Positions 7,993 through 12,006 of a DNA stretch of 43,544 nucleotides are shown in pieces. Position 1 is the first letter of the stretch. Each line of letters opens with the position of its first letter. The notes under the pieces are model-generated. The model was not told where the DNA came from and ran no database searches. It saw only the letters and a list, made by a program, of their open reading frames with translations. The DNA lies in IMG/VR virus record IMGVR_UViG_3300033406_000015, positions 1 through 43,544 of that record; one strand, 5' to 3'. Made by a program: the position numbers and the translations under genes. Source of the stretch: a virus (taxonomy: Duplodnaviria > Caudoviricetes).

Positions 7993-8147
7993 CCCGCCCG
8001 TTCCATCGCCCGCTCGAAGACATCCACCACAGGGCAAGGAAGGGAAGCGGCTTCAGCGAGGCAGTCAACACACACCCCGTCATCGCGTTCCATTTCGAGG
8101 GTCAGGAGTTCCCCGCAGACTGCGCAGGTAATGGGTTCGGCGTTCAT
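7989..8147 (-). CDS. 52-aa zinc-finger protein (not in ORF track)
   Basis: AAGGAG SD; MNAEPITCAVCG...VCVDCL...AG*. Confidence 0.65.
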   Translation of the reverse strand: MNAEPITCAVCGELLTLEMERDDGVCVDCLAEAASLPCPVVDVFERAMERAG

Positions 8148-8384
8148 GCGGTCTTCTCCTTAGGTTGTAGGAGGTCCATGAAATAACTCAGGGCGATGTC
8201 TTGGCTGGGGAATGGGGCAGAGATGCCGGACGATTCGCCGTTGGGGTAGAGGGTCACGCCGCGCCACATGCCGTCAGCGCATCGCCAAACGTGGGCGAGC
8301 TTTCGGCGGTAGGGGCCGACGATCCACCAGCCGATTGGAGCCGGTTCGTATTTGAGGGGGGGGGGCGGACTTAGACTTTTTCAC
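8144..8384 (-). pseudogene. small gene frameshifted at a C10 homopolymer
   Basis: GTG start overlaps the upstream TGA; with C9 it would read MKKSKSAPPLKYEPAPIGWWIVGPY...KEKTA* and couple to the next gene; the sequence has G10 at 8356-8365. Confidence 0.6.
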
Positions 8385-9466
8385 GCGGTAGCCCCATCTT
8401 TCACCGGCACGAACTTGTCGCCGGAAAGTCGGTAAGCAACGCCAGCCAGGACCCCATCTTCTCCCACCTCGGCCATGCGGATGCGCCACTGTTCGCGCTT
8501 CTCATCCCAATACTGGCAAATCAGGGTGGAGCCATAGCCGCCGGTCAGGGTGGAGTCATAGCCGCCGGTCAGGGTGGAGCCATCGCCGCCGGTCAGGGTG
8601 GAGTCATAGCCGCCGGTCAGGGTGGAGCGATTGCCGCCGGTCAGGGTGGAGCGATTGCCGCCGGTCAGGGTGGAGCGATTGCCGCCGGTCAGGGTGGAGT
8701 CATCGCCGCCGGTCAGGGTGGAGCCATCGCCGCCGGTCAGGGTGGAGCCATCGCCGCCGGTCAGGGTGGAGCCATAGCCGCCGGTCAGGGTGGAGCCATA
8801 GCCGCCGGTCAGGGTGGAGCCATCGCCGCCGGTCAGGGTGGAGTCATCGCCGCCGGTCAGGGTGGAGTCATAGCCGCCGGTCAGGGTGGAGCGATTGCCG
8901 CCGGTCAGGGTGGAGCGATTGCCGCCGGTCAGGGTGGAGTCATCGCCGCCGGTCAGGGTGGAGCCATCGCCGCCGGTCAGGGTGGAGCCATAGCCGCCGG
9001 TCAGGGTGGAGCCATAGCCGCCGGTCAGGGTGGAGCCATCGCCGCCGGTCAGGGTGGAGCCATCGCCGCCGGTCAGGGTGGAGCCGATGCATGTGGCTGG
9101 GTCCGCGCCGAGGGAGATTAGGAGGGCGGCGCAGCTTGCCTTGTCGCCGACATGGACCACATCGGCGCGGGGGGCCTTGATCTTGCCGTCAATATCGACC
9201 CACTCATCGATGCCGACAACCATCCACTTGGCGTCAGGATCCCAACTGAGATAGTTAGCACTGCCAGCTCCCCACAGTAGGCCATGGAGCCCGTTCCCGC
9301 ATTCGGCCTTTGGCTTCCAATCGGGGCACTCGACGGTGCCAAAGGTGGGCCACTGGAAACCCCCGTGGGATGTCATATCCGCATTGCAGGTGCGGAGCAT
9401 GTAGGCCTTGTGGCGGGTTTTGAGTTCTTCGATGGTGGGAGGTTTGACGGTCTTTTTGCGGGGCAT
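8381..9466 (-). CDS. ice-nucleation-protein (InaZ)-like beta-solenoid repeat protein, short form
   Basis: N-domain LRTC..DM..HGG..WP..G.V...NGLHGLLWGAG...PRADVVHVGD; 23 GGxxSTLT/I octapeptides; C-cap LICQYWDEKR...VGEDGV.A...Y; AGGAGG SD. Confidence 0.8.
   Translation of the reverse strand: MPRKKTVKPPTIEELKTRHKAYMLRTCNADMTSHGGFQWPTFGTVECPDWKPKAECGNGLHGLLWGAGSANYLSWDPDAKWMVVGIDEWVDIDGKIKAPRADVVHVGDKASCAALLISLGADPATCIGSTLTGGDGSTLTGGDGSTLTGGYGSTLTGGYGSTLTGGDGSTLTGGDDSTLTGGNRSTLTGGNRSTLTGGYDSTLTGGDDSTLTGGDGSTLTGGYGSTLTGGYGSTLTGGDGSTLTGGDGSTLTGGDDSTLTGGNRSTLTGGNRSTLTGGNRSTLTGGYDSTLTGGDGSTLTGGYDSTLTGGYGSTLICQYWDEKREQWRIRMAEVGEDGVLAGVAYRLSGDKFVPVKDGATA
8521..9084. repeat. 24-bp tandem repeat, about 23.5 copies, coding
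   Basis: Invariant GCCGCCGGTCAGGGTGGA plus a variable hexamer (GCCATC, GCCATA, GTCATC, GTCATA, GCGATT). Confidence 0.97.
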
Positions 9467-9474
9467 GGTGCCTC

Positions 9475-9528
9475 CTATGCGGCTGGCGGGATGGGTTTGC
9501 GGGGACAGAAGCGGATGACCTTGCCCAT
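9475..9528 (-). CDS. putative 17-aa leader peptide
   Basis: AGGAGG SD; MGKVIRFCPRKPIPPAA*; its TAG overlaps the SD of the INP-like gene. Confidence 0.4.
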   Translation of the reverse strand: MGKVIRFCPRKPIPPAA

Positions 9529-9955
9529 GGCTGGCCTCCTGTAAAACGGCGAGTTGCCGCTGAAACCCAGCCAGCTAAAACCACGCTGTCGCTGGGCTTC
9601 CGTGGGAACTCGGTTGCGAGGGATTCTTTCCCCTCTGCCACCCCTTTCGCTGGGTCTGCGCCTTCACGGGTCCGGCACATGCGTCCTTACCGCTCGGGGA
9701 TCTCGGGTCTTTTCTCCAGGCCCCGCGATAGCTCACATCGCGGCGGTTGCGGGACTGTCTAGCTCTCCCACCTGGTCTTCCTCCAGCGTCCTGAAAACGC
9801 TGGTTTCGGTTGTCATATCGCTATCGGTTGGCACAGAGCTATCGCCAGCCCCTCAGGGCATCGGCTTTGCTGGTCTGGGTTACTCGCCTTGCTGCTCCTA
9901 CCCGGTTACCTCAACGGCTCGGTGGCTCGTCTGTGGGTGGGGGTGGTGCAACACA

Positions 9956-9984
9956 ATAATGTAGTGTCGCACACTACACGTCAA
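9956..9984 (-). promoter_or_regulatory. leftward early promoter (PL-like) with palindromic operator
   Basis: Minus strand TTGACG-17bp-CATTAT; operator TGTAGTGT-cgc-ACACTACA at 9960-9978. Confidence 0.7.
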
Positions 9985-10010
9985 GGCCCAAATTCTAAAA
10001 TATTTCAGAC

Positions 10011-10037
10011 AAAAGAAAACCCCGCGCTGGGCGGGGC
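10011..10037 (-). terminator. intrinsic terminator of the immunity/moron operon
   Basis: Minus strand GCCCCGC-ccagc-GCGGGGT followed by TTTCTTTT. Confidence 0.75.
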
Positions 10038-10060
10038 TAGTGGCGCGTTGGACCGGAAGG

Positions 10061-10501
10061 TCAGTCCAGTGTGGTGGGATAGATCGCCACATCACCGCTG
10101 GCCGGGAACCCAACCCGGTAGGCCTTGGCAACGCCACGCTCCAGCTTGATCGTGGCCCCAGCCATCTTGTTGCCGCAGAGCCCACCATTGGTCGTGACCT
10201 CAACAACGTGTTCACCAGGCGTCAGGTAAAGGCTCACCTTCTCCTCCGGCTTGAGATTCGCAGCACTCTCTCCATCCACCATCACCCGGAGTTTGCAACC
10301 GGACCCACCGAAGCCGGAGTCTCTCACCACAACCACCAAGCACTTGGAGGGATCCTCGGTTGTGAGGTCCCTGGACAGGACATCTCTGGCTGGGGTTGCA
10401 AACTCTGCCCGGACGCGCTCAGAGGCACAGCTGATCATGGCAAAAAGGGCGAGTGCGCAAACTGCATATCTCATCTTTGCCCCATCCCATTTGACTTTCA
10501 T
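10061..10501 (-). CDS. putative lipoprotein (moron; candidate superinfection exclusion)
   Basis: Hydrophobic signal AVCALALFAMISC, then beta-rich VVVRDSGFGGSGC...LYLTPGEH; true start either 10501 or the Met of MRYAV. Confidence 0.7.
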   Translation of the reverse strand: MKVKWDGAKMRYAVCALALFAMISCASERVRAEFATPARDVLSRDLTTEDPSKCLVVVVRDSGFGGSGCKLRVMVDGESAANLKPEEKVSLYLTPGEHVVEVTTNGGLCGNKMAGATIKLERGVAKAYRVGFPASGDVAIYPTTLD

Positions 10502-10917
10502 TTGCCAACCTCCGGAATAAGCCAATTGTTCCCGCACGCACAACACACCCATGTATTGCGCAGTTTTTCCGCCTGAGCACTCAATAGCAACCGCCTCCGC
10601 TCACGGTGCGACCTCAGCGCAATAGGAGTGATGGCAATACATATCCCGATGATCATAAACACGATGGGTAGAACCAAGGTGGATTTGTCCCAGCCAAGGT
10701 ACCACCCGATGATAAGCCCACCAACTATTGTGATAGGCCCAGCCATGTAGAAATACCCATCTGGCGTTATCGGCTTCACTGGTGCCATAGATGCGGCAAT
10801 CCTCAGCGCAGCGGCGTTGACGGAAGCGCCACCTCGCTCTGTAAACATTGTCGACGTGGCCATGAACATCTCGCAAGTGGACACCGCAGAACTCCCACAC
10901 TTTGGGCAGTTGATCAT
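10498..10917 (-). CDS. zinc-ribbon / two-TM membrane protein (moron)
   Basis: CPKCGS at the N-terminus, two hydrophobic helices, WVCCACGNNW at the C-terminus; GGAGG SD. Confidence 0.72.
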   Translation of the reverse strand: MINCPKCGSSAVSTCEMFMATSTMFTERGGASVNAAALRIAASMAPVKPITPDGYFYMAGPITIVGGLIIGWYLGWDKSTLVLPIVFMIIGICIAITPIALRSHRERRRLLLSAQAEKLRNTWVCCACGNNWLIPEVGK

Positions 10918-10940
10918 GCGCACACCTCCAGGGCTTTGAT

Positions 10941-11096
10941 TCACTTTGTCCTGCGAATGTAATACCCAACGAAAATGATGACGGCCCCCCCTATTAGCCC
11001 TGCCATCTTTTCCTCTGGCGTGCATTTGATTGCAAGCGATCCGACGATAAGCAGTCCCCCGATCACCATAACAATCTCATCCCACTTCGCTTTCAT
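10941..11096 (-). CDS. 51-aa two-TM membrane protein (not in ORF track)
   Basis: MKAKWDEIVMVIGGLLIVGSLAIKCTPEEKMAGLIGGAVIIFVGYYIRRTK*; GGAGG SD, ATGA overlap with the protease gene. Confidence 0.65.
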   Translation of the reverse strand: MKAKWDEIVMVIGGLLIVGSLAIKCTPEEKMAGLIGGAVIIFVGYYIRRTK

Positions 11097-11557
11097 GCGC
11101 ACACCTCCAAAGACCTGATCCGGTAGGCCGCGATCATGCCGGCCAATTTCCTGGCTGGGCAGTTGTGAAGGGGTAGGTCTTCATAGTGGGCTGACAGCGC
11201 CCCAATGAAGGCATCAGGACACGCATTCTGATGGAGCATGATCCGGGACTCTGGGATCAGCGCACAGGCGGCCCAGCGGTTGGCCCTCCATTCGTCCCGG
11301 CTATAGGTCAACTCACCCTTTGGCCCGCACGGATGCTGTACCAGGTGCCCAATCTCGTGAGACAGGATCCACATGTCCCGGAGGGGGGACTTGTCCAGAG
11401 GCAAGAGGATGACGGGGGGCTCGGGCCCTCCAGCGATGAAGAGGCCGTTGTCGCCAATGTCAGCCCTGCCACCACGGCACCCCAGGGATGTGGCGTACTC
11501 AACCAGGTCATCGAAAGACGGGTACCGCAGGCCAAACCACCCAGGATGCCGAATCAT
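11093..11557 (-). CDS. ImmA/IrrE-family Zn metallopeptidase
   Basis: LSHEIGH (HExxH) and EWRANRWAACALIP; directly downstream of the XRE repressor. Confidence 0.85.
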   Translation of the reverse strand: MIRHPGWFGLRYPSFDDLVEYATSLGCRGGRADIGDNGLFIAGGPEPPVILLPLDKSPLRDMWILSHEIGHLVQHPCGPKGELTYSRDEWRANRWAACALIPESRIMLHQNACPDAFIGALSAHYEDLPLHNCPARKLAGMIAAYRIRSLEVCA

Positions 11558-11978: not shown

Positions 11979-12006
11979 TTGACAATGTCGTGTAGCACAC
12001 TACACT
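11979..12006 (+). promoter_or_regulatory. rightward early promoter (PR-like) with operator
   Basis: TTGACA-16bp-TACACT; operator TGTCGTGTAGCACACTACA (11986-12004), 17/19 identical to 9960-9978. Confidence 0.72.

Follow-up and report, generated by a model that had tools for sequence, protein, structure and literature searches.

A short phage relative of bacterial ice-nucleation proteins in the Bbp36/DUF7666 family, with a head domain predicted to be ADP-ribosyltransferase-like

The stretch of DNA analysed here (the window) spans an entire virus record (43,544 bases; estimated completeness 87%). A scan of 41 selected ORFs revealed a temperate layout, with an integrase, a single-strand annealing protein, an exonuclease and an ImmA-like protease, together with a cI-like repressor, a CII-like gene, a helicase, a primase and terminase, portal and tail genes. 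The features around the gene of interest are collected in Table 1. The start codon of this gene is preceded, 4 nt upstream, by AGGAGG, and its product matches both DUF7666 (PF24703, 41.3 bits) and Ice_nucleation (32.5 bits) in Pfam, each above the cut-off of 27, as well as phrog_18079 (E 1e-53). On sequence grounds we assign it to the large phage Bbp36/DUF7666 family.

Table 1. Features of the Bbp36-like gene and of its upstream region in the window
Feature	Position	Strand	Remarks
Bbp36-like / mini-INP gene (P0001)	8381..9466	-	ORF, 361 aa; Pfam and PHROG matches; AF2 model
C-terminal cap, 45 aa	8384..8518	-	Homologous to INP cap
Repeat array, 23 x 24-bp, GG(D/Y/N)(G/D/R)STL(T/I)	8519..9070	-	Predicted beta-solenoid
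Head domain, DUF7666, aa 18-128	9083..9415	-	InaZ N-domain homologue; predicted ART-like fold
17-codon ORF, MGKVIRF...	9475..9528	-	Own strong AGGAGG; stop overlaps RBS of main gene
Leftward sigma70-like promoter, TTGACG-17-CATTAT	9956..9984	-	Overlapped by 19-bp palindrome 9960-9978
Terminator-like hairpin	10018..10038	-	Closes repressor/ImmA/membrane-gene block; leftward promoter-like site just downstream
Rightward promoter-like site, TTGACA-16-TACACT	11979..12006	+	Beside cI-like gene; operator-like word 11986-12004

The preliminary description had presented this ORF as the first major early gene behind a repressor-controlled leftward promoter. It is the first large gene behind that promoter, but the 17-codon ORF comes before it, preceded in turn by a leader of ~420 nt with hairpins; an Rfam search of 8100-10100 gave no match. 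The promoter scan of the window was at chance level (2 found vs 1.8 expected), and the two sites were given weight because both overlap the same 19-bp word, which did not occur in any of 100 shuffled windows. The leftward palindrome has one further copy in the window (with at most 2 mismatches), at the rightward promoter, one of the two real sites being the query itself. The palindrome is likely to be a repressor operator, and since the word is shared by both promoters we infer that the repressor likely controls the gene, which is itself likely to be expressed early. Between the repressor and the leftward promoter, at 10061-11557(-), lie an ImmA/IrrE-like protease, membrane proteins and a phrog_890 lipoprotein.

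The protein has the three parts described previously: 132 residues, 23 in-register octapeptides (residues 133-316) and the cap. The array amounts to ~11.5 coils of 16 residues, close to the 12 that had been claimed, and carries TLT on every half-coil (repeat unit TLTGGxxS). Its octamers are undifferentiated and follow the head with no linker. Differences among the 24-bp units are confined to the two turn codons, the exception being the last codon of unit 23. Tyrosine occurs in 7/23 units, on both faces. InaZ-like arginine coils near the C-terminus had also been suggested; arginine is instead scattered over units 7-8 and 17-19, is absent from the last four units, and the array has a net charge of -11; a C-terminal R-coil block like that of InaZ is therefore absent. 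The structure prediction that had been proposed was carried out with AlphaFold2, and the full-length model (mean pLDDT 94.1) has one short strand per 8 residues, from which the array is predicted to be a beta-solenoid. No transmembrane-like segment is apparent (best 19-aa hydropathy 1.38). The homodimer prediction scored 0.01 and is given no weight here. The near-invariant residues of the head are R25, D49, C56, G57, H61, K95 and K97.

The copy number of 23 holds for the window but is allele- or assembly-dependent, near-identical alleles having 8, 13, 23 and at least 27 units, a spread that assembly error may partly explain. The longest of these (L006) is 99.87% identical over 8,946 bases and its contig ends inside the array. 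When repeat copies were compared in 56 phage genes, the two turn codons accounted for 230 of 235 non-synonymous variants; synonymous variants numbered 38 in total. The search pattern behind these counts fixed codons 1, 3 and 5 and limited two. Both acidic and basic turns are kept in 99 of 107 genes. This variation would fit homogenisation by slippage combined with selection for a charge-mixed stack. Among 250 distinct short forms that combine a head and a cap, a set biased towards relatives of the query, an array is detectable in 186 and undetectable in 64; where detectable, its median length is 7.8 octapeptides and its 95th percentile 19.5, which places the window's 23 units near the upper end of the family range.

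Whole-architecture similarity to InaZ had been proposed, and aligning the non-repeat domains alone bears this out. The InaZ-type genes used, all from Pseudomonas, were obtained by scanning species genomes for a motif. The scan gave 75 stretches, many by chance, and 35 motif-bearing reading frames were examined. The head is 44-51% identical to these proteins over 95-110 aa, with one case of 42% over 116 aa. With the 9-residue search motif masked, the head scores 159-185 against eight complete INPs, compared with shuffle maxima of 40-49 (0/1000 for each). The cap played no part in the motif selection; it scores 39-59 against INP caps, with a shuffle mean of ~20 (0/1000 for seven INPs, 2/1000 for one), and the family cap HMM matches 8/8 complete INPs at 30-34 bits, the INP cap being ~41 aa. 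When Atlas models of the INP N-domain are overlaid on the head, TM is 0.89-0.95. Searches for longer homologues reached InaZ from none of 43 candidates, and 7,998 scored proteins yielded one unrelated-looking fusion and no InaZ. We regard the homology of head and cap to InaZ-type proteins as real, with head, repeats and cap in the same order.

The phage protein thus shares with INPs (InaZ-type, PbINP; PF00818) a globular N-domain, a Gly/Ser/Thr beta-solenoid and a C-cap, but the INPs run to 84-128 octamers, show 16-periodic faces and a Tyr ladder, and carry both a linker and a C-terminal R-coil block, whereas the window protein has 23 8-periodic octamers and none of these additions. Periodicity of the turn dipeptide illustrates the difference: in three INPs the lag-1 and lag-2 values are 0.00-0.04 and 0.44-0.46, compared with 0.32 and 0.10 in the window array and 0.18 and 0.20 in 107 short forms, neither of which has a 16-residue period. 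An INP-like 16-residue repeat with distinct faces is accordingly absent from the window protein. We also considered whether the phage repeats are specifically R-coil-like and found no support for this, as octamers from the first half of INPs fit the units of the window array better (5.1/8) than the last 20 (4.1-4.4).

The family itself is broad. A search with the head returned 1,590 clusters at 50% identity, 132 stretches in IMG/VR (79 loci kept) and 27 matches among annotated phage records; matches were found in 8/401 genus genomes, one of them marked unpublished and used for this count alone, and in 1/401 class-wide genomes, that one being the centre genome. Named members include Bbp36 of Bordetella phage BPP-1 (the VR2 repeat), gp52 of Burkholderia phage Mica and a homologue in Pseudomonas phage D14O. 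Their heads are 42-47% identical to that of the window protein, their caps score 65-79 bits with the cap HMM, and they too carry a variable-number 24-bp repeat array and lie among non-structural genes (in BPP-1 and D14O, on the downstream side of cI); their repeat unit, however, is TATAGxxG. The 24-bp unit of bbp36 is reported at 9-20 copies by isolate, in a gene described as non-essential (PMC2884959), and Mica gp52 was called 'ice nucleation protein' from a BLAST hit (PMC7883832).

Family members sit in a neighbourhood of early and recombination genes. A scan of 80 of the 162 ORFs that flank the family gene at 36 loci gave PHROG matches for 48, including 18 in DNA metabolism (RecE/RecT, helicase, nucleases), two repressors, one integrase and two lysis or tail genes. 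At one of the 36 loci an ADP-ribosylglycohydrolase gene (L057:6946-8004(+)) lies directly upstream of the family member, an anecdotal case that fits the ADP-ribose theme discussed below. Five loci have two head-domain matches (L015, L016, L048, L080 and L054); L015 and L080 contain tandem paralogues, and L054 resembles a gene interrupted by a stop codon or a frameshift. Two unusual members may be gene-calling artefacts: P0232 lies behind a region that by eye resembles ribose-phosphate pyrophosphokinase, and P0112 (645 aa) has two degenerate head-plus-repeat halves. In mycobacteriophage Redi gp44 (L004:4656-5318) short Ala/Val-rich repeats precede a C-terminal head-like domain. Kinship with Tweety gp54 was considered but not borne out; the mycobacteriophage match examined (Redi gp44) has its head at the C-terminus and no cap.

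The best structural matches of the head model, over about residues 1-94, are Arr, Tpt1/KptA, CC0527 and TreTu/TreX, which are minimal ART-fold proteins. The head is predicted to have an ADP-ribosyltransferase (ART)-like fold, a fold also seen in models of the C-terminal domain of T4 rIIB (TMq 0.57-0.66). Foldseek of the full-length model against the PDB gave nothing at E<=0.001, and sequence and profile searches of the PDB gave low-complexity or chance matches only. By strand order, the head would present R25-H61-K97, which would lie outside the canonical ART triads H-Y-E, R-S-E and H-H-h (PMC8120803). The head and rIIB share a C-x-x-G-L-H ... K-x-[KR] motif, but their profile similarity is weak and rIIB has its own N-terminal part, an rIIA partner and no solenoid. 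None of 69 family members has an rIIB PHROG match, and no rIIA-like gene was recognised among the 41 ORFs scanned in the window. We predict a remote kinship of the domain only. In BFVD, many mimivirus-type ankyrin and DUF4116 proteins have the head fold, which suggests one viral domain family placed on different repeat scaffolds.

The short forms and INPs also differ at the putative pocket. Among 235 short forms collected with no motif filter, the numbers retaining D49, C56, G57, H61 and K95 are 229, 222, 230, 231 and 227, respectively, whereas all 16 distinct INP heads have these five replaced and retain R25 and K97. The D..C-G-x-G-L-H..K motif recurs in the distant mycobacteriophage homologue and partly in rIIB, so the INP state looks derived. 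The N-domain phylogeny that had been suggested was built with IQ-TREE from 57 heads and 96 columns, thinned from 339, with a bootstrap not fully settled; in it the INPs, from Pseudomonas only, are monophyletic (100/99), with the short form P0218 as their closest branch (96/92), and the tree has a single long outgroup. P0218 is a 170-aa protein with no repeats that has already lost K95, and it may be an intermediate.

Family size, the loss of polar residues in INPs, the 8- versus 16-residue periodicity and the short-form sister lead us to favour, with reasonable confidence, a derivation of INPs from a short, phage-type gene. The notion that InaZ is an expanded derivative of a protein with a non-ice phage function therefore stands as the favoured reading rather than a proven one, given the Pseudomonas-only sampling and an AU test that does not reject joining INPs to the single long outgroup (p = 0.243). 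The same AU result means that a topology placing INPs outside the short forms stands unrejected, as might be expected if a bacterial ice-nucleation gene had been taken up by phages and shortened, but we think this very unlikely: the short forms are far more diverse (46% mean pairwise identity after thinning vs 70% for INPs) and numerous, INPs group with one of them, and the motif present in the mycobacteriophage homologue is missing from INPs. We also disfavour the suggestion that the window protein, made on induction, binds ice or weakly nucleates it. That suggestion draws on TLT on every half-coil, on the TxT consensus of 162/186 short-form arrays, on a six-repeat INP fragment reported to bind ice (cited in PMC9418140) and on the ice role that the annotators of Mica proposed from similarity (PMC7883832). 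Set against this, a 12-repeat PbINP is reported to be completely inactive and 15 repeats to give -23 C (PMC9418140), and INPs are described as combining some 30-70 water-organising coils with 10-12 R-coils at the C-terminus, with 10 or 12 R-coils in 107/120 INPs, a collapse of activity below eight and a proposed need for at least eight (PMC10727499). The window protein has 11.5 coils, arginine in five scattered units, no Tyr ladder, no 16-periodicity and no transmembrane-like segment; the family median is shorter still, and phages of Bordetella bronchiseptica and P. aeruginosa carry homologues, one record coming from a human wound. The protein is probably too short to make ice, and judged from its sequence an ice function is unlikely, although weak binding of ice is conceivable.

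Phage-host conflict, not ice, is the likely setting in which the window protein acts. We lean somewhat towards an early, dispensable, cytoplasmic host-conflict protein in which an ART-like NAD/nucleotide pocket is mounted on a length-variable solenoid, with rIIB as the analogy. On induction or infection the repressor would leave the leftward operator and the protein would be made; a site formed by R25, D49, C56, H61, K95 and K97 may then bind or turn over NAD+, a phosphorylated nucleotide or a nucleic-acid end, and this putative activity could blunt a defence carried by only some hosts. The slippage-prone solenoid may provide a length-variable, charge-mixed stalk or binding surface. The head might alternatively be a non-catalytic scaffold or decoy, structural (possibly metal-binding through Cys/His) or protein-binding, with the D/R/Y turns of the solenoid contacting a host protein, membrane or nucleic acid. 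The concentration of repeat variants on two turn codons, the retention of both turn charges, the lack of a catalytic Glu and the occurrence of the head fold on ankyrin, pentapeptide and DUF4116 proteins of other viruses would all suit such a role; polar D/C/H/K residues that hardly vary across 235 proteins, however, suggest a ligand site more than a scaffold, and the array is undetectable in 64/250 members, and we consider the scaffold rather doubtful.

The gene family is already known as an annotation and in print, through BPP-1 Bbp36/VR2 and the Mica 'ice nucleation protein', although we found no paper under the name DUF7666. Forbes et al. 2022 report finding no structural homologue of the INP N-domain, and the main texts of the INP papers examined do not mention phage, although their supplementary sequence lists may include phage proteins. 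We did not find an ART-like or rIIB-like reading of the InaZ head in print, in a search that left most subscription literature outside, nor a link between rIIB and ADP-ribosyltransferases in the parts of the literature searched, the ART review (PMC8120803) being without rIIB. The rIIB protein is reported to be required only against RexAB (PMC13716836); how it acts against RexAB was called unclear in a 2023 preprint (bioRxiv 10.1101/2023.05.28.542683).

Given the predicted ART/rIIB-like head of the mini-INP, ice nucleators likely grew from a phage host-conflict protein. A bacterium would likely have retained a phage-type gene that lost its pocket residues and gained a linker, and whose 8-mer expanded and differentiated into 16-mer water-ordering and Arg coils. 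More tentatively, a so far unrecognised viral ART branch might unite the N-domain of InaZ, the C-domain of T4 rIIB, DUF7666 and the heads of many giant-virus ankyrin proteins; its R/K-H-K/R site would act on NAD+ or nucleotide ends, the mini-INPs would be its active anti-defence enzymes, and bacterial ice nucleation would stem from one domesticated phage member with its active site killed and its repeat expanded. As a practical warning, an 'ice nucleation protein' annotation on a phage gene probably does not denote an ice nucleator. For bacterial ice nucleators these data offer a testable origin and a fold for the N-domain, and for T4 rIIB a concrete biochemical hypothesis, that of an ART-like NAD/nucleotide site.
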